From an uncultured Candidatus Saccharibacteria bacterium (GTDB lineage Bacteria; Patescibacteriota; Minisyncoccia; Phycocordibacterales; UBA12088), in the NCBI GenBank assembly GCA_964567265.1, contig CAZMLK010000001.1:91311-155310 (forward strand): a DNA stretch of 64,000 nucleotides. The letters are read 5' to 3'. Of this stretch, positions 655 to 21,448 are shown piece by piece (positions within the stretch are counted from its first letter, which is position 1; every line of letters starts with the position of its first letter). The notes under the pieces are model-generated. The model was not told where the DNA came from. It saw only the letters and a program-made list of their open reading frames with translations, and made no database searches. The position numbers and the translations under genes are program-made.

Positions 655-755
655 ACCTGCGTTGAGATGCGGGCAGCGCAAGCTGCCCGTTTTTCTTTTT
701 GTAACTGCAGATGAATCCAAAAAAAGGGCAGCCTCACGGCCGCCCTTTTGCATGT

Positions 756-1235: not shown

Positions 1236-1244
1236 TGGAAGTGG

Positions 1245-1799: not shown

Positions 1800-1813
1800 G
1801 GAGTAGAAGAAAG

Positions 1814-1990
1814 CTACGCTCGTATTTCTACGTTTTTTGTGAGCGTCTTGAAACGCTCCCCGTTTGCTTGGAGGACCGTGATGGTCACGTGGCCGGTTTT
1901 GCTCGTCTTGATATCCTTGACCACGCCGGACTTGCCCGCGTGCGTGCCGCCGATGACTTTGCATTTTGCTCCATCCTTCAATCCTTTCAT
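1814..1990 (-). CDS. small KOW/Tudor-like (DUF2945-like) protein
   Basis: Start taken at internal MKGLKDG. The GAKCKVIGGTHAGKSGVVKDI...GHVTITV beta-rich motif resembles small hypervirulence-associated Tudor-like proteins. Confidence 0.4.
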   Translation of the reverse strand: MKGLKDGAKCKVIGGTHAGKSGVVKDIKTSKTGHVTITVLQANGERFKTLTKNVEIRA

Positions 1991-2172
1991 ATGAATATTG
2001 TTGCGTGTTCTGTGCTGGTTGTCGAGGGGCTGGCGAGCGAGCTCATGAGCCATACGACACCAACCCTTTCCGTACCGAGTCGCCTCCCCTTGAAGAAACT
2101 TCCGGTGAGTGCTTTTTCAGTACGATGCGCGTATAATTGGTGTCCGACTAATCGCTCCTAAGCAAATTTTGC

Positions 2173-3378
2173 ATGATTACTCAACGCGAAAAAGACGACA
2201 CCAAAACCACAAAGGAGCTGCTGGAAGCATTCCGACTCCGCCTCGCTTTGTATTTAGAAGATCATGCCGTTCCAATCGAACAAGCGTCGACCAAGCGCCA
2301 TGTCGAACTCATCGAAGGTGTGTCAGAAAACCTTACGTTCATCCGTTCGGTATCGGATCAGCATCAGGCCGTGGTCAGGCGCATCGCTGAGGAGTTGAAA
2401 AACCCCAAGCCGTTGATCGATGACTACCGTCAATTCGGCAAGCAGTTCGCGACCACTGCCGTTGAAAAGAACCTTTCACTCCGCGACGCGATCGACGGCA
2501 TCTTGTTTCTCAAAAGCGAGATACTCCAAGAGATTGCAGAAGGAGATTTTCTTCAGGAGCTCAGCAGCATGGAGCTGAAGAGCCTTATGGATTTCATCGG
2601 GACACGTATCGACGTGCTCTTTGCCGAGCTTGCCGTTTCCTACCACCGCAATTTTACTGAAATCCTAGAAGGAGAACTGAAGCACCGGGAGAAACAGAAC
2701 CGGCAGAAAGATCTCTTCATCAGGATCGCTTCGCATGAGATCCGCAATCCGCTCGCGAGCGCCCTCGCGGTGTGCGAGCTAGCGGAATTCGAGAGCGTGC
2801 AGGCAGGGCAGAAAGATGGAGCGGTGTTGCCTGCTTTCCATGAGATCAAAGGCAACCTCGATCTGATCAGCCGCCATCTGAGCCAGCTCCTGACCATGTC
2901 CCTGCTTGAAGACGATACGATCGATGTGAAAAAAGAGCTGACCGACCTGCCTGAACTCTTGGAGCGCATCAAGACTTCCTTTGAACGGATCAGAAAGGGG
3001 TGCGTCATCGTGTTCACGCATCCGGCCTCGCTGCGTATCAACACCGATCCTGACAAGGTTGATCAAATAATCTCAAACCTCCTTCAGAATGCGGTGAAAT
3101 ACTGCCCCGAGGGCAGAGAAATCCAGCTATCGCTTGTCGAGGAAGGAGACCATGCGCTGATTTCGGTCACCGACTTCGGCAAAGGGATAGACGAGGAGAA
3201 TCTGGAAAGAATTTTCGACCCCTATGCTCGGCTCTCGGGCAACGATCCAGGCATCGAAGGCCTTGGACTCGGCTTATATATCTGCCGGACGCTTTCCCGA
3301 GCGCTCGACGGAACGCTCACGGTGAAAAGCGCAGTCGGTGAAGGCTCTACCTTTACGCTTACACTCCCGCTCGAATAA
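2173..3378 (+). CDS. sensor histidine kinase (cytoplasmic, no TM segment)
   Basis: HisKA H-box IASHEIRNPLASAL. HATPase_c N, G1 and G2 boxes (LLQNAVKYCPEG, VTDFGKGIDEENLERIFDPY, GLGLGLYICR). Confidence 0.85.
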   Translation: MITQREKDDTKTTKELLEAFRLRLALYLEDHAVPIEQASTKRHVELIEGVSENLTFIRSVSDQHQAVVRRIAEELKNPKPLIDDYRQFGKQFATTAVEKNLSLRDAIDGILFLKSEILQEIAEGDFLQELSSMELKSLMDFIGTRIDVLFAELAVSYHRNFTEILEGELKHREKQNRQKDLFIRIASHEIRNPLASALAVCELAEFESVQAGQKDGAVLPAFHEIKGNLDLISRHLSQLLTMSLLEDDTIDVKKELTDLPELLERIKTSFERIRKGCVIVFTHPASLRINTDPDKVDQIISNLLQNAVKYCPEGREIQLSLVEEGDHALISVTDFGKGIDEENLERIFDPYARLSGNDPGIEGLGLGLYICRTLSRALDGTLTVKSAVGEGSTFTLTLPLE

Positions 3379-3415
3379 GGAGCACCTCCTGGTGGCGGTG
3401 TCCGTGTTTACTAAA

Positions 3416-4021
3416 TCACTCTGCCGCCTTGAGCGCGCCTGCAGGCTCGTAGGTTGCGAAGATGAGCCCAGTCTTTCCGATCTTCGAATCAACCAGCTTG
3501 AAATTTTCTGCCTGCGTCCCCTCCGCGAATAGTTTCTTGCCGGTCCCGATCGTGATCGGGTGTATCCAGAGATGCATCTTGTCGATCAGGCCGTGCTTCA
3601 GTAATGTCTGGATGAAGTTCCCGCTGCCATACACCCATAGATCCGGACCGTCCTGTTCCTTCAACTTCTTGAGCTCCGCGAGCACATCGCCCGAAATGCA
3701 GGTCGAATTGTTCCATGAAGGCTCGAACGATTCATGGGACACGACGTATTTCCTCGTCTTGTTGAAGGGAACCGCAACCTCGAGATCGGTATCTGCGTTC
3801 GGCCAGAATGCGGCGAAGATGTCATAGGTGGTCTTGCCGAGGAGAAGCTCGAACGGGATCTTGAAGAATCCGCTGAGGATTGCATTCAGCTCTTCGTCGT
3901 GAGGGAACGTGAGCTGCCAGCCGCCATACGCGAATCCGCCTGCCGTGTCCTCATCCGCGCCTCCCGGCGCTTGCATCACGCCGTCGAGCGTGACGAATGT
4001 AGTGGTGATGATTTTTCTCAT
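3416..4021 (-). CDS. dihydrofolate reductase family protein (RibD C-terminal domain-like)
   Basis: 201 aa with MRKIITTTFVTLDGVMQAPGG... and YGSGNFIQTLLKHGLIDKMHLWIHPITIGTGKKLF, typical of the RibD_C/DHFR-like family. Confidence 0.65.
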   Translation of the reverse strand: MRKIITTTFVTLDGVMQAPGGADEDTAGGFAYGGWQLTFPHDEELNAILSGFFKIPFELLLGKTTYDIFAAFWPNADTDLEVAVPFNKTRKYVVSHESFEPSWNNSTCISGDVLAELKKLKEQDGPDLWVYGSGNFIQTLLKHGLIDKMHLWIHPITIGTGKKLFAEGTQAENFKLVDSKIGKTGLIFATYEPAGALKAAE

Positions 4022-4121
4022 ATTGATACTATATCAAATCGAGCCTGTTGCGCTGACCACGTCTCTGGACGAGTGTACGCCGCCTGTCGAAACATTGCAG
4101 AAGTCCCGCACTCATTGGCAG

Positions 4122-4862
4122 CTATTGTTGCTCCCTATTTCCTCCTTCATTCGGATTTGGACGAATGAACCGCTCGAATTCCTGATAAATGGCATAACGG
4201 AAATTTGTATCCTCTTCGGAATCACCCCATATGCCGTGCGGCGCGTCTTTCAGGATAAAAAGTGAAAGCCCTCCGTCTTTTTTCACCTCCTTGTATTTGT
4301 GGATAACAGGACTGGGTATTACTTCATCCTTTTCAGACTCGATGAGTAGCACGGGATGTTCGTACATGCGCAACCACTCGAACGAGTGAGAGTCACGCCA
4401 GCTTCCTTCTTTCCGGATCTCGTCGGTGAAACCTTTCCCGAATGGCACGTTGTGGACCGAGCGGGCATACGCCGCAGGCGCATGAAGGATAAGTGCACCG
4501 AATACATCCGGCTTTTCTTGGATCAGTCCGAGTGCTATGTAGCCCCCCATGCTTGCTCCATAGAGGACGCGCCGGTGCGCCGGCATCTGTTCAGTCATCC
4601 AGTCAGTAACGTGGACCGCCTCCTCGATACGCGATTTCAGCGAACTTTCCTCGAGAGGTACGCCTGAGCCGTTCACTCCGGAATAATCAAAGCTCACGGA
4701 GCTTATACCTGCCGTAGCCAATCCTTCTTGCCACTCATGATAGCGTTCCTTGCCCACGGTGAGGCTGCCTCCGGAAAGAAAAAGGACGCACTCTCTCGAG
4801 CCCTCTGCCCTGATCACGGTCGCGTTCAAGGCGGTTGTTCCGGCTTGTATCTCGATTTCCAT
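4122..4862 (-). CDS. alpha/beta hydrolase
   Basis: GxSxG nucleophile elbow GASMGGYIAL. C-terminal D and H (DEVIPSP...APHG). Confidence 0.65.
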   Translation of the reverse strand: MEIEIQAGTTALNATVIRAEGSRECVLFLSGGSLTVGKERYHEWQEGLATAGISSVSFDYSGVNGSGVPLEESSLKSRIEEAVHVTDWMTEQMPAHRRVLYGASMGGYIALGLIQEKPDVFGALILHAPAAYARSVHNVPFGKGFTDEIRKEGSWRDSHSFEWLRMYEHPVLLIESEKDEVIPSPVIHKYKEVKKDGGLSLFILKDAPHGIWGDSEEDTNFRYAIYQEFERFIRPNPNEGGNREQQ

Positions 4863-4893
4863 TAGTTGCCTATTCTAGCAGTTTTTTGCTAGA

Positions 4894-5775
4894 GTGCTCG
4901 CGGCTCGTAAACGACAGGAGAATCTCGTGACACTTTCGAGACGAATGGCGATGCCTCAGACAGAAGCGGATTGGCTCAACACGGGCAGGTTCACTGTCGA
5001 ATATGTCACCGTCCGGGGCATATCGATAAAATGCGCGCTTGTGCCAAGCAAGGAAAGGGGCCGGCTGGTCACCATGATCGGCGGCATACCCCGTGAACCC
5101 GATAGGCAGCGCAACCTGCCCTTGGTGAATAAGTTGTATGGACAGCTCTCGATAGAACTGGCGGCCTGCGGAGTGAGCAGTCTGCTCTACAACCAACCCG
5201 CAACCGGCGGCTCCGGGGGAGCATGGGAGAAAGAAACCATTGCATCACGGACCGAGGTGCTTGCGGAACTGGTCATGCATTTCAGCAAGCGTCTCTCTGT
5301 AACAGACAATGCCCTGGTAGGTTCCAGTGCGGGTGCGTATATGGCGGTAGGTGCCCTCGAGCACGTGCGGCCCCATGGCGAGCTCGTCTCAAAGCTGATC
5401 CTCCTCTCTCCGGCAGCGTATCCAGAAAAGATTGAGTCGGTGTCCTATGGTCCGGAATTCAGCCAGCTCATCCGGGAGCCTTGGGACGTATCGACATCGC
5501 CGGTCTTCGAAAGGCTCGCGAAATTCGCGCGTGATGGCGGGGAAGCCCTCACCTGCTTTTTCGAAGCAGATGACCCGCCCATTCCGATGTTCATTCAAGA
5601 GTATTACCGGGATCACGCGAGACAGATTTTTGCGAAGAGAGGTGGCGGGTCCGTCATCACCATTCCGGGTGTGGCGCACAACTTCCGTAAGCTCAAAAGG
5701 GCGCGGAGAGAGAATGTCACCGACGATGACAGCATACGGGCCACCGCCCATACGTTCCTCGAATTCTTACGGTGA
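4894..5775 (+). CDS. alpha/beta hydrolase family protein
   Basis: GxSxG GSSAGAYMAV, and the size of the hydrolase fold. The true start may be an internal Met. Confidence 0.5.
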   Translation: MLAARKRQENLVTLSRRMAMPQTEADWLNTGRFTVEYVTVRGISIKCALVPSKERGRLVTMIGGIPREPDRQRNLPLVNKLYGQLSIELAACGVSSLLYNQPATGGSGGAWEKETIASRTEVLAELVMHFSKRLSVTDNALVGSSAGAYMAVGALEHVRPHGELVSKLILLSPAAYPEKIESVSYGPEFSQLIREPWDVSTSPVFERLAKFARDGGEALTCFFEADDPPIPMFIQEYYRDHARQIFAKRGGGSVITIPGVAHNFRKLKRARRENVTDDDSIRATAHTFLEFLR

Positions 5776-5953
5776 GCATGCTCACGAGAAACCGCCGGCT
5801 CCACGCCGGCGGTTTACATTATCCAAGCGACAACCGTGCCACCCTCACGCAATCAAAGCCTACGTCCAAATACCCAAAATAACGATAAATACATATTGAC
5901 AAACGATAAGTACTGGATTACGATCGAAGCATATACAGGTATAAGCAGTAACT

Positions 5954-6430
5954 ATGAAAAGAAGCTCGACAGTTTTTCTGCAGGTGGTCATCGTGGCTCT
6001 CGGCATCGGCGCGCTCGCGCTCCTGCTTGCCGAACCGCACTTCGAGGGCGTGAACGCGAACAAGACATTCTTCGCGGTGTATCTTGATCCCTTTATCGCG
6101 CTCGTCTACGCAGGTTCTATTCCTTTTTTCGTAGCGCTCTGCCAGGCGTTCAAGGTTCTGGGGTATGCGGGACAAAACAAGGTATTCTCGCCGGAAGCCG
6201 TGAAAGCCCTGCGCACCATAAAATACTGCGCGCTCGCCATCGTCGGCTTCGTCGTCTTAGAAGAGATTTTCATCATGCTGAATCATGGAAGCGATGACGC
6301 TGCGGGCGGCATTTTCATGGGCATCCTCATCACGTTCGGCTCAATCGTGATTGCGACAGCTGCTGCGATGTTCGAACGGATCTTGCAAAACGCCGTCGAC
6401 ATAAAGTCCGAGAACGACTTGGTGGTGTAA
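5954..6430 (+). CDS. DUF2975-family membrane protein
   Basis: Four-TM small protein immediately upstream of an XRE HTH gene, the conserved YozG/DUF2975 pairing. Confidence 0.6.
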   Translation: MKRSSTVFLQVVIVALGIGALALLLAEPHFEGVNANKTFFAVYLDPFIALVYAGSIPFFVALCQAFKVLGYAGQNKVFSPEAVKALRTIKYCALAIVGFVVLEEIFIMLNHGSDDAAGGIFMGILITFGSIVIATAAAMFERILQNAVDIKSENDLVV

Positions 6431-6440
6431 CGAAACCCCT

Positions 6441-6644
6441 ATGGCAATCATCATAAATATCGACGTCATGCTGGCGAAGCGGAAGATGAGCGTCACCGAG
6501 CTCGCCGAGAAAGTCGGCATCACGATGGCCAACATTTCTGTCTTGAAGAATGGCAAGGCGAAGGCCGTCCGCCTCTCGACCCTGGAGGCGATCTGCAAAG
6601 CCCTCAAGTGCCAGCCGGGAGACATCCTCGAATACACCGATTAG
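6441..6644 (+). CDS. XRE-family HTH transcriptional regulator (YozG-like)
   Basis: 67 aa with MLAKRKMSVTELAEKVGITMANISVLKNGKAKAVRLSTLEAICKALKCQPGDILEY, the canonical YozG-type HTH. Confidence 0.8.
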   Translation: MAIIINIDVMLAKRKMSVTELAEKVGITMANISVLKNGKAKAVRLSTLEAICKALKCQPGDILEYTD

Positions 6645-6794
6645 CTCGTTCACGGAGCGAATGGATTTAGCGCCCCAAGTAACGTATATTGGACTCAGTG
6701 GACATACGTGGATCATCTTGCGGCCGACGCTTCGGGCATTTCGCAGGCCACTCCCCACATTGAAATCGAAGCGAATTACCAGCTAATACGTGTA

Positions 6795-6980
6795 GCCATG
6801 AATCTGAAAGAGATGCATGACGAGCACACCCGCGACTGGTACGACCCCAAGGACGGCATCAAGTATGGCCTCGCAGCCATGAAATGGTACGGCTGGGGTT
6901 CGCCGGTGGGCTTAGGCCTATTTTTCCTGTCGGTCGCGGGAGTCATCTATCTCCTGCACCTCGCAGGCTTGATAGGGTAG
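6795..6980 (+). CDS. small membrane protein (hypothetical)
   Basis: Internal ATG at 6795. C-terminal hydrophobic helix. Followed by the intrinsic terminator at 6984-7017. Confidence 0.3.
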   Translation, partial: AMNLKEMHDEHTRDWYDPKDGIKYGLAAMKWYGWGSPVGLGLFFLSVAGVIYLLHLAGLIG

Positions 6981-6983
6981 CAG

Positions 6984-7017
6984 AAAAAGACCCGGGGGAA
7001 TTCCTCCGGGTCTTTTT
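6984..7017. terminator. bidirectional intrinsic terminator
   Basis: aaaagacccggggg-aattcc-tccgggtcttttt hairpin with flanking A/T runs, between convergent genes. Confidence 0.6.
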
Positions 7018-7052
7018 CATTTGCGTCTCAGCTCGAGTTACTGCTACCTGTT

Positions 7053-7466
7053 CTACTTCGCGTCGACGTCGATCATCCATTCGATACCGTATTTGTCCCT
7101 GAACATTGCAAAAGCACTGTTACCGGAGGGCGCAATCTCAACCGTTCCGCCTTCCGAAAGCCCTTTGAATAGCTTGTCGGCTTCTTCGCGGCTTTCCGCG
7201 CTGATTGATATCTTGGATCGGTTCTCGTTCTCGTTCGTCCGCCCCATGCTTTCCGGGACGTCATTGGCCTTCAGCGTGTTCGGGCCGATGGGGAGCGCGA
7301 TCAGTATTACTTTATTCTCTTCCTGGGGTGCGACAGGGAATTCAGCGCTTGCGATGTCCTTGAAACGAGTAATTTTTGAGATTTCTCCGCCGAATACCGA
7401 CTTGTAAAAAGTGAACGCTTCTTCGGCATTGCCGTTGAAGTTGATGTAGGGATTGATGAGTGCCAT
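7053..7466 (-). CDS. VOC/glyoxalase-family protein (PhnB-like)
   Basis: 137 aa, MALINPYINFNGNAEEAFTFYKSVFGG ... GIEWMIDV, matching the PhnB/VOC N- and C-terminal signatures. Confidence 0.7.
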   Translation of the reverse strand: MALINPYINFNGNAEEAFTFYKSVFGGEISKITRFKDIASAEFPVAPQEENKVILIALPIGPNTLKANDVPESMGRTNENENRSKISISAESREEADKLFKGLSEGGTVEIAPSGNSAFAMFRDKYGIEWMIDVDAK

Positions 7467-7550
7467 ATGCGTGGATTATATCTTATTTTACTAATTCCTC
7501 CAGCGGAGGGGGCCAATACGTACCTTTGAGTCCTCTCTCTGTCAAAAATG

Positions 7551-7584
7551 AAAAGCCCCGAGCAGCTTCGCTGCTCGGGGCTTG
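7551..7584 (-). terminator. intrinsic terminator of the protease gene
   Basis: gccccgagcagc-ttcg-gctgctcggggc hairpin followed (minus strand) by a U-run. Confidence 0.6.
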
Positions 7585-7598
7585 ATCCCACCGTTCAA

Positions 7599-8720
7599 TC
7601 ACTGAAACGGTGTTTGTATTTGCGGCAATCCTCCGACCGAAGGTTCCGCTCCATCACTTCTAGTACGACTGAACGCTTGGAGCGCCTCCCATGCTTTTTG
7701 TAATTCGGCGGCATTTCCGCCGCCAGTCTCAACTGCTCGCCTTGCAGCATCCGTCACTGCATTCATGAGCGTCGTGAGCTGATCATCAACGGAAACTCCT
7801 ACGGGTGCAGTCGGTACCTCATGTGTCGGCAGAATCAAATTTGGTGCCACACCATTCTTTTGCCTCAGGATCGAAGAAGCGCTGACCGCAAAATTATTCG
7901 CTTGGCCCCACGGTGGCGGGACATTCAATGAACCGAACGCCGCTACATTCATTGGACGGCTTGCGTAATCCTGCACGGTCGCAACGACCTGTCCCACACA
8001 ATCAAAGACAGGTGCACCTGACGCGCCGCGATTCAAGACATCACGGTGGTTATTTCTGTCGCCCACATCAAGGGGAATGTATGGGGGCGGTTCCTTTGCT
8101 TTGTCGCTCCTCGCATCTTCCGAGGGAGTCGGATATCGAACGTTCCCCAGCGCGATTCGGAGCACTGGATCAGGATCGGGTGTTGCGTACGCAGTAAGCG
8201 CTCGACTTCCATCGGGCGCGGGATACGCGAGTGCGACAATTGGCTCATTTTGCCGGAGCGGCGCATAGCGAATCTTCGCGATCTGCGCACCCTCGACCAC
8301 GTCTTTGAGTTCTAGCGCGACAATCACTTCTGCGCCGGGATCTCCCGCAAACACATTTGCGATTCTCGCCCGTGTTTCGAGTACGTGAGCAGATTTGCCT
8401 CCTTCCGCATCGCTCCAAAAGAACGTGACGGGTCTCCATTCGGTCGCGCTCAAATGCGCCGCGACCACCACATGCTCTATCGTAACGAGCGTTTTCTTAT
8501 CAAGAAACCATGCGGTCCCCCCGATCCCGTTGGTATACGCATTGGGACGCTCATCTTCTTTGAGCGGTACTTGCATTCCGACTGTGGTGCGAATGAGCCT
8601 TGTCGGCAACAGCTCATCCGGACATTTCTCGTACTGTTCAAACGCTCTTGGCGTCGCCGCACTTACGCTCGGCGTCGCGGCAAACAACAAGGCAAAAGCA
8701 CAAAGGGACGTACGCCACAT
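7599..8720 (-). CDS. secreted trypsin-like serine peptidase
   Basis: Signal peptide MWRTSLCAFALLFAATPSVSA. GASGAPVFD matches the GDSGGP-type catalytic Ser motif. His and Asp candidates lie upstream. Confidence 0.55.
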   Translation of the reverse strand: MWRTSLCAFALLFAATPSVSAATPRAFEQYEKCPDELLPTRLIRTTVGMQVPLKEDERPNAYTNGIGGTAWFLDKKTLVTIEHVVVAAHLSATEWRPVTFFWSDAEGGKSAHVLETRARIANVFAGDPGAEVIVALELKDVVEGAQIAKIRYAPLRQNEPIVALAYPAPDGSRALTAYATPDPDPVLRIALGNVRYPTPSEDARSDKAKEPPPYIPLDVGDRNNHRDVLNRGASGAPVFDCVGQVVATVQDYASRPMNVAAFGSLNVPPPWGQANNFAVSASSILRQKNGVAPNLILPTHEVPTAPVGVSVDDQLTTLMNAVTDAARRAVETGGGNAAELQKAWEALQAFSRTRSDGAEPSVGGLPQIQTPFQ

Positions 8721-9367
8721 CGAACTTCTCCAGAGCTAGAGTCACTTCTGGCCTGAGGATAGCATACAATTTCTGGGTGTACATTTGGCGTTGCGCCATT
8801 CTTCCTACCCTCCGTCTCGTCACTTCGTTTCGGCGGGCACGCCGCAGTTAGCAACCGGAGCTGGTATCGAGAAGCGCGAGCTTATGGGGTGGTTCAAATC
8901 GCGAGTAAAGATCACGAAGGGCGTAGTTCCCCTGGGATAGTGCGAGGCCAAAACTCCACCTTTGAGTTGAAATTCGGCGTTGCGTTTGCGGAACAGAGGG
9001 AATTCCAGGAGGAAATAATGCACACAAGGTTATATAGTTCATTTCAATCCCTATCCCTATCCCTAGGAATATGCATAATACCCTTATATAAGAAGGTATT
9101 TCAACTATATAGATATGCTACGCGTTCAGTAAAACCAGATAACCCATAGTGTGTCCGTTCCTGCTGGTAGCGGATCCTTTCCGCTAGCGTAACGCCGGAT
9201 TTCAACGACTCGGAAGGTCATTACCCCTTTACAATTGTGTCAGGAAGGTGATTTAATGGCTGAGATCGGCTCGCGCTTGGACCGGGTATTGACGCGCTCG
9301 AAGCTGGGTGTACACTAACTAGCAGTTCATAAACGCAGTACTCACTATCACTTTCAAAGTAAACATC

Positions 9368-9766
9368 ATGGCAAAGACTAACGATCCCCTCGCTTCTCTC
9401 ATCTCAAGCGATGCGAAGGCGACAGACAGGAAGAAGCTCGCTGAACTTGTGGGTCCATACATGGTCATAGACCAGGACTCACGGGAGTTCAGTTTTCACT
9501 CGATGCTACACGACGTAGACGGCAATGATACAAAAATTGAGATCCTTCTCGCAGGCGCAAAAGCGCGCTCTCTGTACTTCGATATGACCGACGGCCTGTT
9601 GCCCGGTGAAGTGCAGGCCGCCGGACTCATGCCCGAAGGTAGCGTGAAAACCAGCCTCAAAAAACTTTTCGATAGCCACCGTATAAAAAAGGACAAGGAA
9701 GGCAGGTACTTCCTCCCGGCACACCGCATCCAAGAACTTATTAAGAAACTCAATGGTCTTCAATAA
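9368..9766 (+). CDS. hypothetical protein (possible wHTH)
   Basis: 132 aa. First gene of a lower-GC four-gene operon. The C-terminus resembles a winged helix. Confidence 0.45.
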   Translation: MAKTNDPLASLISSDAKATDRKKLAELVGPYMVIDQDSREFSFHSMLHDVDGNDTKIEILLAGAKARSLYFDMTDGLLPGEVQAAGLMPEGSVKTSLKKLFDSHRIKKDKEGRYFLPAHRIQELIKKLNGLQ

Positions 9767-9769
9767 CAT

Positions 9770-10180
9770 ATGAACAAACTTCAAGATCAGGTTCACGCTC
9801 TCGAGGAACGAGTCGCCAAACTCGAACGGGTTTTACTCTCTGCACAGGAGAGCGGCGCGTCTCCAGCAAAGACAAAAAAATCATCTGCAAAAGAGTTCCT
9901 CATGACCAAGGCACTGAAAACTGAAACGCAAAAGGTGCTCGCACTCGGTTACTTCCTTGAGTACATGGGGAACATGGAATCATTCAACGTAAATGACCTG
10001 GAGACGGTCTTCCGTTCGGCAAAAGAGCGGGTGCCGAAAAACATGAACGACGCGGTCAACAAAAACATCGCCCGCGGATTCCTTATGGAAGCGGCCGGAA
10101 AGAAGGATGCGAAGAAGGCGTGGTGCCTAACGTCAACCGGAGAAAAGTATCTCGAAGACGACCTTACAACTAACCGATAA
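9770..10180 (+). CDS. hypothetical protein with N-terminal coiled coil
   Basis: 136 aa. Starts 4 nt after the previous stop. The C-terminal KKAWCLTSTGEKYL resembles KNAWLTSGDVGKV in the next gene. Confidence 0.45.
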   Translation: MNKLQDQVHALEERVAKLERVLLSAQESGASPAKTKKSSAKEFLMTKALKTETQKVLALGYFLEYMGNMESFNVNDLETVFRSAKERVPKNMNDAVNKNIARGFLMEAAGKKDAKKAWCLTSTGEKYLEDDLTTNR

Positions 10181-10185
10181 TCGCC

Positions 10186-10665
10186 ATGTCCGATACACTC
10201 AAAAATAAACTCGACACCATTCGCGACCTCGTCGACGAGTGCCTCACGGAACTCGGTTCAGGAAAAGTGGCAAAGGCTAGGCCGGCGAAGTCAGCAGCTG
10301 TGGACTCGGCAGACACCAATCCCGATACGGTACTCCGAATCGTCAATAAGGTTGGCGACTGTGATGAGGCAACCGCAATTGAGAAACACGTGCTTAATAC
10401 GCGAGGATCCGAAGGTAGGGTCCTCTTGGCCTTCTACATCGCCCACAAATACTTCAAGAACGCATGGCTCACCAGTGGCGACGTGGGAAAAGTTACCGCT
10501 GACCTGGGAATAAAAATCGACAAGAAAAACGTCTCTAACTACCTCGTGACGTACCGGAAGTACCTCGAGAGCGGTGCTGTTAGAAAGAAGGGTCAATCAA
10601 CCCCCTACCGCATGAACCGGGCGGGAGCGAAGCGTTTCGAAGAAATAATTCATGAAAAAGAGTAG
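10186..10665 (+). CDS. hypothetical protein (paralogous C-terminal module)
   Basis: 159 aa. Shares the AW(C)LTS-G motif with the upstream gene. Confidence 0.45.
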   Translation: MSDTLKNKLDTIRDLVDECLTELGSGKVAKARPAKSAAVDSADTNPDTVLRIVNKVGDCDEATAIEKHVLNTRGSEGRVLLAFYIAHKYFKNAWLTSGDVGKVTADLGIKIDKKNVSNYLVTYRKYLESGAVRKKGQSTPYRMNRAGAKRFEEIIHEKE

Positions 10666-11323
10666 CGACAAATCTGAGAAGGTGCCGGATATACTCCGCG
10701 TCCTTTGGCAACAAGGCTTCTTCAAAGAGTGGAAGAATCAGGAAGATGTCGCGACTCATCTCTCTGGGAACGGCCAAAATCTCCGTCCAAATACTCTTAG
10801 CGTTGCACTGCTGCGCGCGGACTATCTAACAAGCAAGAAGCAGAACGGTTCAAAGAAGTATATTCAAACGAAACCTGCCATAAGCAAGGCAATTGATAGG
10901 ATTGAGGACGATCTTTTCGAAGACGCGCTGTTAAAGAAATTTGGAAAGGAATTTGAGGTTGAGATAGCGGACCTTCGGCATAACTTTGGAGTTAGCGGGA
11001 ACTGCACCGCATTCCTTCTGCGTAAAATTCTTGAGAAACTTATCTTCATTACGTTTGCGCGGCATGGGATGCAGGCAAAACTCGAAGATCCTAAAACTCC
11101 CGGGACCGGCAGGCTGATCGGACTGGAGGCCATGATAAACGCTGCAGCAAGAGAGAAGGTAAACGGAATACCATTACTTACGTCGCATACCGCACAAGAA
11201 GTACGTGGGGTGAAGTTCCTTGGTGATGCTTCGGCACACAACCCACTCACCGAGGTCGATATGAAGACAATCATTCCTCAAATGCCGTTTATCATCACAG
11301 CATACAAGGAACTATTACGCTGA
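10652..11323 (+). CDS. hypothetical protein
   Basis: 223 aa. Overlaps the previous gene by 14 nt. No recognisable motif. Ends 54 nt before tRNA-Ser. Confidence 0.45.
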   Translation: MKKSSDKSEKVPDILRVLWQQGFFKEWKNQEDVATHLSGNGQNLRPNTLSVALLRADYLTSKKQNGSKKYIQTKPAISKAIDRIEDDLFEDALLKKFGKEFEVEIADLRHNFGVSGNCTAFLLRKILEKLIFITFARHGMQAKLEDPKTPGTGRLIGLEAMINAAAREKVNGIPLLTSHTAQEVRGVKFLGDASAHNPLTEVDMKTIIPQMPFIITAYKELLR

Positions 11324-11376
11324 AGATTGGGACTAACTCTAGCCCTCGGCATACCTCCGATACAAAAAACTTCCTG

Positions 11377-11461
11377 CGGAGGGTAGGAGATTCGAACTCC
11401 TGAGACCTTGCGGCCTACACGCTTTCCAAGCGTGCGCACTCGACCACTATGCGAACCCTCC
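11377..11461 (-). tRNA. tRNA-Ser (anticodon GGA)
   Basis: The reverse complement folds as a class II tRNA. Acceptor GGAGGGT/ACCCTCC. Anticodon loop TTGGAAA. Long variable arm. T-loop TTCGAAT. Confidence 0.8.
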
Positions 11462-11592
11462 TCGTATTCGTTTTTTTCCCCGCCAAATCGTTCCTGTTAT
11501 AGCACACCCCCTTGGGGTTCCAAAAGAAACAGCACCCTTGCGGGTGCTGCATTAGGGTCGTGATTCGAGCTGCTTTTATTCTTTTCGTTTCC

Positions 11593-11895
11593 TCAGTATA
11601 CGGCGGCAATTTCGACGGCCGGGACTTTGCCTGGGCGACGCCTATTCGTGCGAGCCTTGCGGCTCGTTGGTGAATTCGGGTGTCTGTGTTTTCGCCAGAT
11701 CTCTTCCATTACTTTGTACTGTTTCGTCCAGTTTGCGAGTGTTCGAACGGCGCGCGTGTGCACGTTGCCGATGCCATGTGCGTTACCTTCATCAAGAGCG
11801 GCAAGCTCGGCGAGCAGCCTCACCGCTTTCTCGAGCTGCGTGCGTGCATCCTGCATTCCAATGACTGCATGTACCAACGGGGTGTCGGGAAGCAT
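11593..11895 (-). CDS. hypothetical protein
   Basis: 100 aa ORF in the lower-GC island with a basic C-terminal tail. No motif recognised. Confidence 0.3.
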   Translation of the reverse strand: MLPDTPLVHAVIGMQDARTQLEKAVRLLAELAALDEGNAHGIGNVHTRAVRTLANWTKQYKVMEEIWRKHRHPNSPTSRKARTNRRRPGKVPAVEIAAVY

Positions 11896-11992
11896 CAGAA
11901 TCTCCTATTTCAACTTCGGCACTATATAAGCACACTAAATTGATTCCACAAATGTACTTTTTTTGGGTTTTAGACTATATTCGAGATTACCT

Positions 11993-12592
11993 ATGAAAAA
12001 ATACACCCTCTACATACTCGTGGCCATCGCCCTGATTCTACTTGGTGCTGGCGCATACTATCTCCGGCTTAAGCAGGAGGGAATGTCGATTGCTGAAAGC
12101 AAGCCTGGAGTGTATCAAAATGATGACTACAATTTTTGTATCCGTTATCCCGAAAGCTACAAGTTGACCACGTTGCCTGAAGGGGTGAACCCGCCTGCAG
12201 TTCTCTCGCTCAGCATCAGCGCATCTGCGCCATCTACGGGACAAGACCCAGAAACAAATGCAGGAATTGATTCGATGCATTCGATGTTGCTTACAGTGAA
12301 TACTCCCGCTTCAGCTGACCTCCACAGTCATGTGGCAACGATGATCGAGAAGCAGTTCTTAGTCTCTGAAACGGATACGTCAATAAATGGACTGTCGGCG
12401 GTTGCAGTGAGTGCGAAGTCGGCATTCGATGGGACTCCTTACAAGGCAACCTACCTATTCTTGCCTGCATCGGGAAATGTTGGGGATTCTTTGGTGACGA
12501 CAAGCTATGCAGATGGGACTGAATACACAACGAAATTTGATGAGACGGTTTTGAGTATAAAGAAAAAGGACCCGGGCGTGGACTGCAATTAA
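11993..12592 (+). CDS. membrane-anchored/secreted hypothetical protein
   Basis: Start at MKKYTLYILVAIALILLGAGAYY (signal anchor). Ser/Thr-rich extracellular region. Lower GC than the flanks. Confidence 0.5.
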   Translation: MKKYTLYILVAIALILLGAGAYYLRLKQEGMSIAESKPGVYQNDDYNFCIRYPESYKLTTLPEGVNPPAVLSLSISASAPSTGQDPETNAGIDSMHSMLLTVNTPASADLHSHVATMIEKQFLVSETDTSINGLSAVAVSAKSAFDGTPYKATYLFLPASGNVGDSLVTTSYADGTEYTTKFDETVLSIKKKDPGVDCN

Positions 12593-12634
12593 GAAGCAGT
12601 ACCAACACCCAAGGTCACTCAAGTCAGTAGAGGA

Positions 12635-13231
12635 TCAGTAGTAGCTCAACTGAGCTGGATTGATGAACGATTCGCTAAAGGCTGGGTAGCCGTCACATGC
12701 GGATTGCGGAAGCGCTCCGGCAACAGACACCCTTGAATTGTACGGAGCCATCCGTACGCCGAAGTGCAGATGGGTATTGGAACCCATGTTCGCAACGGTG
12801 GCGATTCTGGTCCCTGCGACCACTTGGACACCCGCGCCGGCTGATGGAATTGGCTCGATGTGCCAGTACACTGTCGTGAACTGACCACAATGGTCGATGA
12901 CCATCCCGTATCGCCATCCCGTGTTGTCGAACACGAATTGTACGATAGTGCCGTCCCATGCCGCGTACACTGGTGAACCGGGTGAGGTGTTGCTCCCGTC
13001 CACAATGTCGATGCCGTTGTGCTTCTTTATTCTCCCTGTGCACGGATCCGTACGTACCCAATTGGCTCCAAAGCCAAGGGTAATACGCGATGAGTTGAAG
13101 ACTCCATTCAGAGGATATTTGAAGCTTACTGGCGTCTGGCACCGGATGACCACCGCCTTTGCGGGAGTTATAACTGATTGTGCGAGTGACAAAGCGCTGA
13201 GACCGAATACGGCTCCACGACGTGTGAGCAC
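12635..13231 (-). CDS. secreted M23-family metallopeptidase
   Basis: Signal peptide. HNGIDI ... HIEP ... NTHLHFGV matches the HxxxD / HxH zinc ligands of LytM/M23. Confidence 0.75.
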   Translation of the reverse strand: MLTRRGAVFGLSALSLAQSVITPAKAVVIRCQTPVSFKYPLNGVFNSSRITLGFGANWVRTDPCTGRIKKHNGIDIVDGSNTSPGSPVYAAWDGTIVQFVFDNTGWRYGMVIDHCGQFTTVYWHIEPIPSAGAGVQVVAGTRIATVANMGSNTHLHFGVRMAPYNSRVSVAGALPQSACDGYPAFSESFINPAQLSYY

Positions 13232-13366
13232 GACAGCTTCCTTTCAGTAAGGAACGGGATGTTCCGTCCGTTGGCCACAGTATCCTAGAAATGATCAAGC
13301 ATCAATTCAGCATGTCTATACAAAACCGGAAAATTCTGGTTTGATAGGCCTTTCAGGTTCTCCTTT

Positions 13367-19066: not shown

Positions 19067-21448
19067 ATGAAACGATTCCGCCCGCCAAGCGCACGAACAC
19101 TTCTCCCCGCGGTCGTCTTCGTGACGGGCGCTGCGGTCTTGATCGTCGAAGTCGTCGCGGTCCGCCTTCTCTCTCCATACTTCGGGAACACGCTCTATAC
19201 GTTCTCGAGCGTCCTCAGCGTCATCCTCGCGGCGCTCGCGATCGGATACCGCCAGGGCGGGCGGCTCGCGGACCGTCGCGGGACGTACGGCCTCTTCTTC
19301 GCGATCATCGCGGCGGGCGGTTTCTCTATATTGGTGCTCCTCGGGCTCGGCCGGATCTCACTGCCAGTCCTTAGCGCTGCATTCTCGCTCTCGCTTGGCC
19401 CCTTGGTCGCCTCGATGCTCCTTTTTTCCGCGCCCGCATTTCTCCTTGGCATGCTCTCGCCGTTCGCGGTGAAGCTCGCGGCGCTTGATACGCCCCATGC
19501 AGGCGTCGGCGGCGCGGCCGGGAGCATGTTCTTCTACTCGACGCTCGGCAGCATCGCGGGAAGCCTCTCTTCAGGATTCTTCCTCATCCCGTTCGTCGGC
19601 GTGTCGCATACGCTGATCGCGACCGCGACGGTCCTCGTGATCATGGGCGCGGCGGGCGCAATCGAGAGCGGGGATTTTCCAAAATCAAAGATAAAAAGCT
19701 GGGGGCTCGGCGTCGTACTCCTTTTCTTTTTCCTCGTATGGACGCTTCTCCGGCTGCCTGCGTATGCCGATTTTCCGGGAGTGACGCTCCATCAGGAAGA
19801 TGGGAGGTATGAGCAGATCACGGTCCTTGAGACAGAGTACAGAGGCAAGCGGGCACGGATACTCGCACTCGACCGGGGGTTCTCCTCCGGTATTTTTGTT
19901 GATTCCGGCGCGCTCGCGTTCGAATACACGCCGTACTACAAATTCGCGCATTTCCTCGAGGAGCCTATGGAGAAGGCGCTCGTGATCGGTGGCGGTACCT
20001 TCACGGTGCCGAAAGCGCTCGCGGACGAATTCCCGGATGCATCAGTGGATGTCGTCGAGGTGGAGCCGGCGCTCTATGGCCTCGCGCAGAAATATTTCGG
20101 CCTGGTCCCGACTCCTCGGATCCGCAACATCACCGCGGACGGCCGCCAATTCATCCGCGGCTCGAAGGAGAGATACGATTTCATATTCGGCGATGCGTAC
20201 TCGAGCCTCTATTCGCTTCCGCCGCATCTCACGACGAAGGAATATTACGACCTCGTCGCGAATCATCTCTCCGAGGGCGGCATCTACATCGAGAATTTCA
20301 TCGGGTCGCTGTCGGAGACGGATCCATCACTCATTTATTCGAGCATCCGAACGATGCAGGAAGTCTTTCCGGAAGTCTCAGTGTTTGCAGTCACGGTGCC
20401 GGGAAGCATCTCGCCGCAGAACATCATGCTCGTGGGACATTCGCGGCCGCTCCCGGAACGATACCCGACGGATGCATTCCTCGATGACGCGCTCCAGGCG
20501 CATACAGTCGCTATTGATCACCTGCCGCTCTCACGCTTCCCGATCATCACGGACGACAAGGCACCTGCGGAGTATTTCGCTGCGAAGCTCCTCTCGAACC
20601 TCGAATCGCGCGACATGAGCTTTGATGGGGACGAGGCGCTCGCGCGGATCGAGAGCCAGCTCGCGTTCGGTCCGCGGTACCCGGGGAGCGAGGGGCATGC
20701 CGCGACGGAACGCTATATCAAAGGAGAACTCGAGAAGTACGGCATCCCCGTCGCGCTCGACACCTTCACGCCGAATGGGAGCGCGCAACGCTACACGAAT
20801 ATCATCGGACATTTCGGGTCTTCATCGAAGCGCATCATCCTTGGCGCGCACTATGATACGAAGCGCCATGCCGATCTCGATCCACGGCATCCGGAAGACG
20901 CGCTTCCGGGCGCGAATGACGGCGCATCCGGCGTCGCCGTCCTCCTCGAGCTCGCGCGCATCCTTTCGATACATGGATACGGGAACGTCGGTATTGATTT
21001 CGTCTTCTTTGATGGAGAGGAGGGAGCACCGGACATCGACTCGCGCACCTTCCTCGGCTGGCAGCCGATCGGCTCGACTCATTTCGCGGAAAATATCCAG
21101 AAGCAATATCCGGGTCAGAAGCCGGCATTCGGCATCGTGGTTGATATGGTCTGCGACCGCGACCTTCATATATATCGCGAGCGGAATTCCGACACGGCGG
21201 CGCCCGAGGTGATCGCGAAACTCATCGCGGAAGGTGATGCACTTTTTCCTGGGAAATTCCATGACACAGAGCGGGGCGTGATTGAGGACGATCACAGCGC
21301 GCTCACGCGTGCGGGCATTCCCTCGGTCCTCCTCATCGATCTCGACTATCCCGCATACCACACCACCGGCGATACGATTTCAAAATGCTCGAGCGAGAGC
21401 CTCTCCGCGGTTGGCGTCACGCTCCAGAAATACCTGAAGGGGTTGTAG
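19067..21448 (+). CDS. fusion protein: polytopic membrane domain + spermidine-synthase-like methyltransferase fold + C-terminal M28-family peptidase domain
   Basis: N-terminal ~230 aa with multiple TM helices. Middle: VIGGGTFTVPKAL...VDVVEVEPAL...GDAY (SpeE-like Rossmann motif). C-terminal: GAHYDTK...DGASGVAVLLELARIL...FVFFDGEE (M28 zinc-ligand pattern). Confidence 0.7.
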   Translation: MKRFRPPSARTLLPAVVFVTGAAVLIVEVVAVRLLSPYFGNTLYTFSSVLSVILAALAIGYRQGGRLADRRGTYGLFFAIIAAGGFSILVLLGLGRISLPVLSAAFSLSLGPLVASMLLFSAPAFLLGMLSPFAVKLAALDTPHAGVGGAAGSMFFYSTLGSIAGSLSSGFFLIPFVGVSHTLIATATVLVIMGAAGAIESGDFPKSKIKSWGLGVVLLFFFLVWTLLRLPAYADFPGVTLHQEDGRYEQITVLETEYRGKRARILALDRGFSSGIFVDSGALAFEYTPYYKFAHFLEEPMEKALVIGGGTFTVPKALADEFPDASVDVVEVEPALYGLAQKYFGLVPTPRIRNITADGRQFIRGSKERYDFIFGDAYSSLYSLPPHLTTKEYYDLVANHLSEGGIYIENFIGSLSETDPSLIYSSIRTMQEVFPEVSVFAVTVPGSISPQNIMLVGHSRPLPERYPTDAFLDDALQAHTVAIDHLPLSRFPIITDDKAPAEYFAAKLLSNLESRDMSFDGDEALARIESQLAFGPRYPGSEGHAATERYIKGELEKYGIPVALDTFTPNGSAQRYTNIIGHFGSSSKRIILGAHYDTKRHADLDPRHPEDALPGANDGASGVAVLLELARILSIHGYGNVGIDFVFFDGEEGAPDIDSRTFLGWQPIGSTHFAENIQKQYPGQKPAFGIVVDMVCDRDLHIYRERNSDTAAPEVIAKLIAEGDALFPGKFHDTERGVIEDDHSALTRAGIPSVLLIDLDYPAYHTTGDTISKCSSESLSAVGVTLQKYLKGL

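Follow-up and report, generated by a model that had tools for sequence, protein, structure and literature searches.

The DNA between positions 8814 and 11375 of the window (the whole 64-kb stretch analysed here, from a patescibacterial genome of the Paceibacteria type, ~0.6 Mb in size) was acquired horizontally as cargo and fills a variable hotspot next to the 3' end of a tRNA-Ser(GGA) gene. It carries a four-gene cassette that is likely, in our view, to be a mobile module for conflict or defence, with a HEPN RNase predicted as its effector. The features of the locus are:

8803..8814, plus strand: the 12-nt TCCTACCCTCCG at the left slot border, which repeats the tRNA-Ser 3' end (11377-11388) exactly in inverted orientation
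8814..11375, no strand: acquired cargo segment (variable slot), from sister-strain alignment and GC content
8863..8940, plus strand: remnant of a large serine recombinase gene (last 26 codons and stop), aligning to the 3' end of ORF 452-1219 of L073
8958..9218, no strand: imperfect palindrome of ~260 nt in the leader, from self reverse-complement alignment
9368..9766, plus strand: gene A, 132 aa; an N-terminal part unassigned to a fold and a probable winged helix (~residues 55-132)
9770..10180, plus strand: gene B, 136 aa; a long, coiled-coil-like N-terminal helix (2-27), a linker, the SAKEFL helix and a winged helix (52-130)
10186..10665, plus strand: gene C, 159 aa; N-terminal helix, linker and probable winged helix
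10652..11323, plus strand: gene D, 223 aa; winged helix (residues 10-72, nt 10679-10867) and predicted HEPN-fold domain (77-223, nt 10880-11320)
11213..11245, plus strand: invariant motif K188-F-L-G-D-x-S-A-H196-N-P of D, from homologue alignment
11376..11461, minus strand: tRNA-Ser(GGA), a host gene whose 3' end is the right slot border (ARAGORN; Rfam tRNA, 54 bits)

The limits of the 2.56-kb slot follow from alignment with the sister strain L078, which matches the window at 16756-11948 (93%), 11947-11376 (82%) and 8813-7679 (90%). The slot lies between the upstream region of a trypsin-like protease gene and the tRNA-Ser 3' end, and the tRNA is present at the same border in L078. Between the same two borders, the sister strain lacks the four-gene cassette and holds an unrelated 1.69-kb insert, which encodes an OLD-family nuclease (PADLOC Old, E 6e-65). 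The first-pass annotation had suggested searching relatives for an empty tRNA-Ser flank; in L078 the cassette is indeed missing, with other cargo in its place. The same comparison shortens the island, originally drawn at ~3.9 kb (8750-12600), and returns the 100-aa ORF (11593-11895) and the secreted protein (11963-12592), which had been counted as part of it, to the conserved backbone.

The GC content of the slot is 49.0%, compared with 57.4% for the window (z = -2.76), and the lowest-GC 2.56-kb stretch of the entire 64 kb starts at 8951. The drop described at first reading is real, but the left flank lies at 53-56% and not at 62-65%; values of 58-64% are reached only beyond ~14 kb. GC3 is 51-61% in A-D versus 73-87% in LepA, MurJ, ABC, MFS, LeuRS and TsaD, with GC3 being depressed across the entire 1-13.3 kb region of the window. 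As in tRNA-associated islands, the locus deviates in composition, sits at the 3' end of a tRNA and is missing from a close relative, but it has no intact integrase with flanking direct repeats. A search for a direct repeat of the tRNA-Ser end (att sites) returned only the 12-nt inverted copy. TCCTACCCTCCG is the sole other copy of this tRNA end in the 64 kb, two matches were reached in 3 of 100 shuffles, and the L078 copy is degenerate (TCCTCACCTTCC); we regard the significance of this repeat as marginal and uncertain.

The same cassette is found in a different organism (L073) at 92.3% nucleotide identity, in an unrelated genomic context and adjoining its own tRNA-Ser. The two tRNA-Ser genes are only ~78-80% identical, against 92% for the cassette. 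The DNA shared with L073 begins exactly at 8863, the first position of the serine recombinase remnant. The statement that no integrase is present holds for an intact gene, but overlooked this 26-codon 3' end. In L073, the corresponding ORF upstream of the cassette is longer, though still truncated, and contains PF07508 (Recombinase) and PF13408 (Zn_ribbon_recom). Serine recombinase homologues adjoin cassettes in six further loci, and most cassette loci have no recombinase nearby. In five cassettes of the ABCD type, a convergent tRNA is located 52-96 nt downstream (four identities: Ser, Glu, Gln and Asn), at a background density of one tRNA per 25 kb. The cassette has thus been acquired, it moves, and the contents of its slot are swapped. 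A large serine recombinase probably drove the integrative element that brought the cargo in, and has decayed since. The OLD nuclease in the L078 slot and the 92%-identical copy in L073 strengthen the initial reading of an accessory or defence-type module acquired at tRNA-Ser, and the window, L078 and L073 together provide a clean natural case of cargo exchange at a tRNA-adjacent hotspot.

The first-pass annotation correctly described a leader of ~650 nt with a repeat, followed by four plus-strand genes (9368-11323) that end close to the minus-strand tRNA. The leader (8721-9367) comprises 647 gene-free nucleotides with a perfect ATCCCT tandem repeat (x3.2) at 9047-9065. This repeat is contained in the AT-rich core at the centre of the palindrome, which is 77% complementary over 238 nt (score 136; shuffles 43 ± 9.5, maximum 76) and is kept in L073 (86%, more perfect) and in L077 (77%). 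Its RNA fold z-score is -3.25, and an Rfam scan of 8400-12800 recognised the tRNA and no other ncRNA. The genes form a tight operon, with spacings of 3 nt and 5 nt and then a 14-nt overlap, and the stop of D lies 52 nt from the tRNA. In comparison with L073, dN/dS is 0.08-0.35 across all four genes (0.089 for A, 0.354 for C), indicating purifying selection.

As single sequences, A-D have no significant match in Pfam, NCBIfam, PHROGs or PADLOC, and pairwise BLASTP among them returned none either. The earlier view that the products fall into no recognisable family stands to this extent, but it missed the HEPN fold in D. The three-helix bundle and β-hairpin wing of a winged helix were found. B combines a coiled coil with a winged-helix (wHTH) fold, its SAKEFL helix is conserved, and it has 303 homologues. 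C is probably a distant paralogue of B that also contains a winged helix, judging from profile alignments (hhalign B-C, E 0.01 over 91 columns; C to the N-terminal wHTH of D, 1.5e-3), and it is optional, being found in only some cassettes. The A family aligns with the N-terminal wHTH of D (E 5.8e-4) and with C (2.4e-3); the wHTH calls for A and C thus rest on E-values of 1e-2 to 6e-4 from small-database profile comparisons. A has 12 or more homologues, invariably the first gene of the cassette. In PADLOC-DB v2.0.0, B, C and D have no match and A has only sub-significant ones, to the AbiEi N-terminal wHTH (E 0.0028, residues 88-120) and to JetB (E 0.019), both confined to the wHTH; related small proteins match the AbiEi wHTH weakly as well. 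The AW(C)LTS / YLTSKK element that had been read as a shared wing lies within the wing in B, but when the profiles of B and C are aligned, the element of C falls on the helix-2 region of B, and the likeness between the two is coincidental.

The C-terminal two-thirds of D is modelled as a HEPN fold related to DUF4145, with a four-helix up-and-down core, and this domain is the probable effector. A Foldseek search of the PDB with D gave no significant match. Sequence profiles place D as a distant DUF4145 relative and a non-member by Pfam's criterion: the D of the window matches no family, PF13643 included, at E ≤ 1, and 17 of 46 homologues match PF13643 over profile positions 13-80 of 88 (residues ~112-199), the best with 19.3 bits (E 0.0012), below the gathering threshold of 23.1 bits. 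We found 631 D homologues; a HMMER profile search of 1.84 billion representatives returned only 270 relatives, which makes D a small, sharply bounded family. Identity across phyla is 50-75% with 30 invariant positions, which is unusually well conserved for a toxin and speaks against the conflict or defence reading.

D does not contain the canonical Rx4-6H before the last core helix. The equivalent position is occupied by K188-FLGDxSA-H196 (K-x7-H), with no arginine 4-6 residues ahead of H196; K188, D192 and H196 are invariant among the 46 homologues. The spacing of K188 and H196 is identical to that of R146 and H154, the catalytic residues of the DUF4145 RNase RAZR (PMC13017515). As lysine replaces the catalytic arginine and the structure model has low confidence in the motif loop (193-198), D may instead be a non-catalytic binder of RNA or a ligand. 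With its invariant K...H, this form of the DUF4145 HEPN site is a natural test case for lysine substituting for catalytic arginine.

Related cassettes occur at ~140 distinct loci with unrelated neighbours, in Patescibacteria, DPANN archaea, Acidobacteriota and others, including Omnitrophota and Bradyrhizobium. Their distribution is patchy and crosses domains. Phage, plasmid and IMG/VR collections contained no relatives, suggesting that the cassette is cell-borne. The cassettes always consist of two to four small winged-helix proteins and a terminal protein that joins a winged helix to an effector. This terminal effector domain is exchanged: downstream of B homologues, an N- or C-terminal wHTH is fused to a TIR, PLD or HEPN domain. 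The TIR is of the CAP12/PycTIR type (Pfam 4.8e-37; PADLOC PDC-S35 2.9e-66), the PLD-type protein matches PDC-S05 (7.7e-21), and some of the HEPN domains carry the canonical RNxxAH. The search against defence models proposed at first reading thus gave no significant PADLOC match for A-D themselves, but strong ones for the terminal proteins of sister cassettes, so that part of this super-family is already on record among candidate defence systems. The definitions of PDC-S35 and PDC-S05, whose "S" presumably denotes single-gene candidates, do not include the set of several wHTH partners.

In the mechanism we favour, A, B and C would be small partners of D, with the winged helix as the theme common to all four proteins and the N-terminal coiled coil of B serving in dimerisation. 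D, in which a winged helix of this kind is fused to a DUF4145-like HEPN, would be the effector RNase, its composite active site being formed by H196 and K188 of two paired HEPN domains. The winged-helix proteins would constitute the regulatory or sensing part and would repress the operon at the ~260-nt leader palindrome. Winged-helix and coiled-coil contacts would keep D inactive in a hetero-oligomer until an invader-derived trigger releases or assembles it, leading to RNA cleavage and growth arrest, as in abortive-infection or toxin-type immunity. What we infer here is RNA cleavage by D, its assembly into a complex, binding to the operator, the trigger and a role against phages.

Alternatively, the cassette could be an addiction (toxin-antitoxin) module that stabilises a recombinase-borne integrative element, with D as a HEPN toxin and at least one wHTH protein as autoregulating antitoxin. 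The serine recombinase genes or remnants beside the cassette in the window, L073 and six other loci fit this reading, as do the small tight operon with its palindromic upstream region, the weak AbiEi-type wHTH similarities and the frequency of HEPN toxins in toxin-antitoxin systems (PMC3710099). However, the cassette has three to five genes and not two, it outlasts the decay of the mobile element in the window and L073, and it mostly has no recombinase nearby. Moreover, the swapping of HEPN, TIR and PLD domains, and a slot that is occupied by OLD in L078, point more to an immune system. We consider the addiction module rather unlikely as the main explanation, although the two roles are not mutually exclusive. 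A non-toxic regulatory module, in which the wHTH proteins act as transcription factors or nucleoid-associated proteins and D as a Roquin-like binder of RNA or a ligand with a dead HEPN that tunes host expression, seems less probable still. The substitution of lysine for arginine would suit it, but the patchy cross-domain distribution, unrelated neighbours and absence from the sister strain argue against it, as does the pairing of the same partners with TIR and PLD domains, and invariant H196, D192 and K188 would be unexpected for a relaxed site. That the ORFs have no function and persist by chance from a prophage or integrative element that has decayed is hardly credible: although the recombinase is truncated and no other element genes are left in the slot, all four genes show low dN/dS, the ORFs are intact and tightly coupled, the many D and B homologues have strongly conserved motifs, and phage collections contain no homologues.

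The defence module that we favour does not correspond to any described system found in our literature search. RAZR (PD-T7-4), which we compared by description, is a single gene combining a Cys4 zinc ribbon with a DUF4145 HEPN RNase (PMC13017515), whereas D has an N-terminal winged helix without the Cys4 pattern, three wHTH partner genes alongside and lysine in place of arginine. DUF4145 effectors tied to defence by experiment are RAZR, BxaP and Ishtar (RAZR: PMC13017515). The DUF4145-like HEPN families (Anantharaman et al. 2013, PMC3710099), BxaP and Ishtar included, share with D the HEPN fold, varied N-terminal fusions and defence contexts. The fusions listed there are sigma-HTH, zinc ribbon and REase; they do not include a wHTH fused to DUF4145 and accompanied by tandem wHTH partner genes, as in the D cassette (PMC3710099). 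HEPN-MNT and AbiE are likewise small mobile operons, with a HEPN toxin or a wHTH antitoxin (AbiEi) and a partner, but they have two genes rather than four, and no nucleotidyltransferase domain (MNT or AbiEii) was found in A-C or the neighbouring genes. The Type IX retron, composed of RT, ncRNA, HEPN and a wHTH protein, resembles the cassette in that a HEPN nuclease and a separate winged-helix protein act as dual effectors (bioRxiv 10.64898/2026.07.14.738597), whereas the slot contains neither an RT ORF nor an Rfam-recognisable msr/msd ncRNA. The eukaryotic, non-nucleolytic, RNA-binding ROQ-HEPN of Roquin is 7% identical to D and alike in fold only; its ROQ winged helix sits between the HEPN halves, unlike the domain order of D. 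Dallas (PMC12366544), again compared by description, is a multi-gene, abortive-infection-type system from Patescibacteria DNA whose proteins have no recognisable homology; its DdgA reportedly has homologues only within Patescibacteria, while those of A, B and D are not confined to that group.

It is possible, though we put this forward only tentatively, that the cassettes represent an undescribed immune super-family, especially common in Patescibacteria and DPANN. Here, paralogous winged helices would act as homotypic adaptors, akin in function to Death or effector-associated domains, and would link small sensors or regulators, two to four in number, with an effector that can be exchanged (K/H HEPN, canonical HEPN, TIR or PLD), with a HEPN branch using a lysine-histidine active site. 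Tandem winged-helix partners and fusion to an exchangeable head offer a testable hypothesis of small adaptor domains coupling sensing to effectors. To our knowledge, few defence systems have been recognised in genome-reduced episymbionts such as Patescibacteria and DPANN archaea. If immune, a compact cassette spanning Patescibacteria, DPANN, Acidobacteriota, Omnitrophota and Bradyrhizobium would help to fill this gap. Looked at one by one, several loci have S subunits of type I R-M systems or a PDC-S02 nuclease next to them, and in Bradyrhizobium guangxiense a 59%-identical B homologue lies within a 3-kb low-GC islet.

The four cassette genes A to D lie head to tail on the plus strand, with a 3-nt gap between A and B, a 5-nt gap between B and C, and a 14-nt overlap of C and D. 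They are followed closely by a convergent tRNA gene.

Genes of the cassette and the adjoining tRNA gene (window coordinates)
9368-9766, plus strand, gene A, ORF of 132 aa
9770-10180, plus strand, gene B, ORF of 136 aa
10186-10665, plus strand, gene C, ORF of 159 aa
10652-11323, plus strand, gene D, ORF of 223 aa
11376-11461, minus strand, tRNA-Ser(GGA), 52 nt past the stop codon of D

The borders of the acquired segment are set by a related contig, L078. Its M23 peptidase is at least 90% identical to that of the window and the flanks share 90-93% nucleotide identity, and L078 was therefore treated as a sister strain.

Segments of L078 aligned with the window
L078 1-4810, window 16756-11948, ABC transporters, M23 peptidase and ORF F (secreted protein, 11963-12592)
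L078 6321-6857, window 11947-11376, ORF E (100 aa, 11593-11895) and tRNA-Ser, 82% identity
L078 8545-9681, window 8813-7679, trypsin-like protease gene and its upstream region

Between the 3' end of the tRNA and position 8813, A-D are replaced in L078 by an unrelated 1.69-kb insert. Its sole product, a protein of 533 aa, matches the PADLOC model 'Old' (E 6e-65) and also the AriA and GajA ATPase models. Since this insert occupies the borders that hold A-D in the window, 8814-11375 is a hotspot, whose cargo is A-D in the window and a known defence gene in L078. The first-pass annotation had placed a 3.9-kb island at 8750-12600. An acquired segment at the tRNA-Ser is indeed present, but ORFs E and F, which align in L078, belong to the backbone. 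In addition, L078 has ~1.5 kb of strain-specific DNA inserted at another point, between ORFs E and F (L078:4811-6320, window junction 11947/11948), so that the tRNA-Ser neighbourhood has at least two variable points. The 186-aa and 104-aa genes of this second insert gave no match in PADLOC.

Base composition gives a broader picture. The slot (8814-11375) has a GC content of 49.0% versus a window mean of 57.4% (z -2.76), and the lowest-GC 2.56-kb stretch of the window begins at 8951. The GC drop described initially thus exists, but its size was overstated, as the left flank lies at 53-56%; values are 46-53% over 9000-12700 and reach 58-64% only beyond ~14 kb. GC3 is 51-61% in A-D versus 73-87% in LepA, MurJ, LeuRS, TsaD and the ABC and MFS transporters. 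Low GC3 (50-65%) is also found in the trypsin-like protease, ORF E, ORF F, the M23 peptidase and the histidine kinase flanking A-D; with such neighbours on both sides, the whole of 1-13.3 kb is compositionally atypical. Across window 1-13300, GC (~53%) and GC3 (50-65%) are both below the rest of the window (GC3 73-87%), and the genes include a histidine kinase, DUF1697, RibD_C, alpha/beta hydrolases, a DUF2975 and HTH_26 pair, a glyoxalase, the trypsin-like protease and the M23 peptidase. This stretch is possibly a more extensive variable or accessory region. The pair is compact: at 5954-6644, a DUF2975 membrane protein is directly followed by a 67-aa Cro/C1-type HTH_26 protein.

The cassette has also moved between organisms. 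L073, whose flanks are unrelated to those of the window (Peptidase_M48, LemA) and which stems from a different organism, bears the same cassette, with 92.3% DNA identity over window 8863-11461 and 95% amino acid identity in D. Its tRNA-Ser(GGA) likewise lies 52 nt past D. This tRNA is only ~78-80% identical to that of the window, against 92% for the cassette, which indicates that it is the recipient's own gene, outside the transferred DNA, and rules out that the tRNA travels with the cassette. Directly 5' of the leader, an ORF of L073 (452-1219) encodes the C-terminal half of a large serine recombinase (PF07508, PF13408), and homologues of it adjoin related cassettes in six further loci. In the window, only the last 26 codons persist as a scar (8863-8940, ending ...GIEKRELMGWFKSRVKITKGVVPLG*). 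The initial statement that no integrase was present therefore holds for an intact gene and misses this remnant.

In five of the closest cassettes (A-B-C-D type), a convergent tRNA gene lies 52-96 nt downstream, in four tRNA identities.

tRNA genes downstream of these five cassettes
Ser-GGA, window and L073
Glu-CTC, L002
Gln-CTG, L077
Asn-GTT, L083

Against a background density of one tRNA per 25 kb, these five cassettes suggest that insertion at tRNA 3' ends has happened repeatedly. No direct-repeat att sites flank the insert. The left border holds an exact 12-nt inverted copy of the tRNA-Ser 3' end (11377-11388), TCCTACCCTCCG, at 8803-8814; the window has no copy beyond these two arms, and the match is marginally significant. 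Being inverted rather than direct, the repeat does not fit a classical attL/attR pair, and it is degenerate in L078. A phage or plasmid origin is unsupported, since tblastn of INPHARED phages and PLSDB plasmids found no relatives of D, nor did scanning IMG/VR for a sequence pattern. Comparison of natural relatives (the window, L078 and L073) shows directly that the segment was acquired, that it is mobile and that it alternates with a defence gene in the slot.

As single sequences, the products of A-F had no significant match in Pfam, NCBIfam, PHROGs or PADLOC. For D, the databases contain 631 homologues, none of them named, at 50-95% identity. In an alignment of 46 sequences, 30 positions are invariant and cluster in DL.LNFG.SGNCTAFLLRKILEKL and KFLGDxSAHNP. 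The AF2 model of D (pLDDT 86.6) predicts a winged helix (10-72) followed by an all-helical domain (77-222). When each of the 46 homologues was scanned against Pfam, 17 weakly matched DUF4145 (best E 0.0012, all below the gathering score). Positions 13-80 of the 88 in the profile correspond to residues ~112-199 of D, including both conserved motifs. DUF4145 is a HEPN family (PMC3710099), and the experimentally studied DUF4145 RNase RAZR has R146 and H154 as catalytic residues (PMC13017515). The invariant K188 and H196 of D have the same spacing, with RAZR taken from published residue numbers. By its modelled fold, D is thus a HEPN protein and a distant relative of DUF4145, with an invariant K...H pair; it lies below the Pfam threshold and lacks the canonical Rx4-6H motif. 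Searches of PDB sequences with the D profile, together with that of A, returned noise only (listeriolysin, E 0.3; RNAP omega, E 0.1), and Foldseek of D against the PDB gave nothing at E <= 0.001, recovering neither RAZR nor other full-length analogues. Among 1.84 billion representatives searched exhaustively with HMMER, just 270 relatives were recovered, 59 of them at E <= 1e-30; many of the 270 are 75-115-aa proteins that match the N-terminal winged helix alone.

Among the partner proteins, B (303 homologues, 23 invariant positions) is modelled (pLDDT 76.6) with a winged helix at residues 52-130, joined by a disordered linker to a long helix at the N-terminus (2-27). Profile-profile comparisons weakly connect the C-terminal halves of A and C with one another and with the B and D winged helices (A versus the D N-terminal domain, E 5.8e-4; C versus the same domain, 1.5e-3; A versus C, 2.4e-3; B versus C, 0.01 across 91 columns), and A weakly matches the AbiEi wHTH (E 0.0028). 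The first-pass annotation had noted a short AW(C)LTS/YLTSKK element, wing-like in appearance, in three of the four proteins. As a homologous motif, it does not hold for B and C: in their alignment, KKAWCLTSTGE in the wing of B pairs with STPYRM-RAG of C, and KNAWLTSGD of C pairs with the helix-2 region of B, so the shared motif is coincidental between the two.

The 647 nt 5' of A (8721-9367) contain no convincing gene. Within this leader, 8958-9218 forms an imperfect palindrome with an AT-rich core at its centre, 77% self-complementary over 238 nt (score 136 versus 43 +/- 9.5 for shuffles). It is kept in three cassettes: the window, L073:1245-1485 (more perfect, 86%) and L077:8355-8554 (77%). 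In L077, which lacks the recombinase, the palindrome is recognisable. The RNA fold of the region has a z-score of -3.25; Rfam on 8400-12800 found the tRNA alone and nothing in the palindrome, and a sigma-70 promoter scan gave matches no better than chance. Candidate roles for the element (200-260 nt) are an array of operators, a cruciform or hairpin structure, and a site of recombination; in our view it would likely serve the winged-helix proteins as an operator or regulatory region. The leader also holds a perfect ATCCCT x3.2 repeat (9047-9065). A type III toxin-antitoxin (TA) system with a tandem-repeat RNA antitoxin was ruled out, the sole repeat being this 19-nt hexamer array, which is degenerate in L073. 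A long leader as a general cassette feature was likewise rejected: the median of 186 nt versus 38 nt for other intergenic gaps is a crude ORF-based figure from rough gene calling.

With the D and B alignments as queries, 144 loci were recovered from genome and metagenome contigs. Hosts in the genome-contig scan include Patescibacteria, DPANN archaea (Woese-, Micr-, Nano- and Pacearchaeota), Omnitrophota, Acidobacteriota, Bacteroidota, Thermoplasmata and Hadarchaeia, and further hosts are alpha- and gammaproteobacterial MAGs and the cultured Bradyrhizobium guangxiense. The cassette thus spans Patescibacteria and DPANN archaea, groups with few recognised defence systems. Its neighbours vary locus by locus. 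Iterated HMMs revealed a constant plan: two to four small plus-strand proteins (~70-170 aa), either A/B/C family members or carriers of a domain homologous to the N-terminal winged helix of D (~150 matches), immediately followed by a terminal protein of ~220-280 aa. In some B-anchored loci this terminal protein is not D.

Terminal protein types
HEPN with the K/H pair, as in D of the window
Winged helix and canonical HEPN (GTRNSCAHP), L141, DUF4145 E 0.033, PD-T7-3 0.001
Same N-terminal domain and CAP12/PycTIR TIR, L080, Pfam 4.8e-37, PADLOC PDC-S35 2.9e-66
Winged helix and PLD, L150, PLDc_2 1.8e-4, PDC-S05 7.7e-21, NsnC, DrmC
251 aa, N-terminal FRSRKKGVH motif and C-terminal winged helix, 19 loci

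In their winged-helix parts, the terminal proteins show a weak relationship with the A and B families (best E 9.8e-5). Related cassettes thus swap the head of the putative effector in modular fashion among HEPN, TIR and PLD. Type I R-M specificity subunits lie 3' of the cassette in six loci, and a PDC-S02-type nuclease 3' of D in L003. In B. guangxiense (GCA_053181705.1), L080:9001-12000 is a 3-kb islet of 49-52% GC in a 65% GC chromosome, with genes for a B homologue, a protein of 183 aa and a wHTH-TIR protein (PDC-S35); this cultured rhizobium would be tractable for testing the super-family. In one A-B-C-D lineage (L074:3086-3358, L075, L076), precomputed Pfam assignments place an Imm5_like (immunity protein) gene directly 3' of D. 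A cytidine/dCMP deaminase-family gene (PF00383, 7.5e-10) lies 3' of the terminal protein in two B-containing cassettes (L155:6155-6634 and L157) and may be a further accessory component.

In our reading, the cassette is probably a mobile module for conflict or defence, in which D serves as the HEPN effector. D would act as an RNase whose active site forms upon HEPN dimerisation. A, B and C may bind the palindrome, D or both, with B dimerising via a coiled-coil and winged helices contacting one another among the proteins. Jointly, A-C would hold D off until an invader-derived cue appears, and activation would lead to RNA cleavage and growth arrest. Precedents are RAZR, which is activated by assembly on phage proteins (PMC13017515), the HEPN-MNT toxins (PMC3710099) and the type IX retron, in which a HEPN nuclease is paired with a winged-helix protein (bioRxiv 10.64898/2026.07.14.738597). 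The cassette is none of these: unlike RAZR, D has no zinc ribbon, and the cassette lacks the nucleotidyltransferase of HEPN-MNT and AbiE and the RT of retrons. A-D matched none of the PADLOC v2 models, which already list just the TIR and PLD heads found in sister cassettes, as candidates PDC-S35 and PDC-S05, and no paper describing the cassette was found in the searchable literature. We therefore describe it as a putative HEPN/TIR/PLD-effector conflict module with a tandem winged-helix partner architecture that, in a comparison without the Patescibacteria-derived 'Dallas' system, is previously undescribed. The first-pass annotation had suggested an accessory or defence-type module; its observation is confirmed in part and its interpretation supported in part.

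A role primarily in addiction, with the cassette acting as a TA system, is a rather unlikely alternative. We give still less credence to a non-toxic regulatory or RNA-binding role; in its favour are the lysine substitution, a fold match resembling Roquin and conservation at an unusually high level. A dead remnant is highly improbable; all four genes are under purifying selection (dN/dS versus L073: A 0.089, B 0.118, C 0.354, D 0.083).

The host of the window is a member of the Patescibacteria (CPR) of Paceibacteria type, with unusually high G+C content; the nearest named relatives of its LepA (~70%) are proteins of Paceibacterota, Taylorbacteria, Zambryskibacteria and Parcubacteria. Elsewhere in the window, two tandem ORFs (19067-21448 and 22039-24420) encode 793 aa each. 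The first carries Spermine_synth and Peptidase_M28 domains, and the second, given the equal lengths, is probably its paralogue. At 34044-36155 lies a class I aminoacyl-tRNA synthetase of just 703 aa that contains a fragment of a LeuRS-type editing domain.
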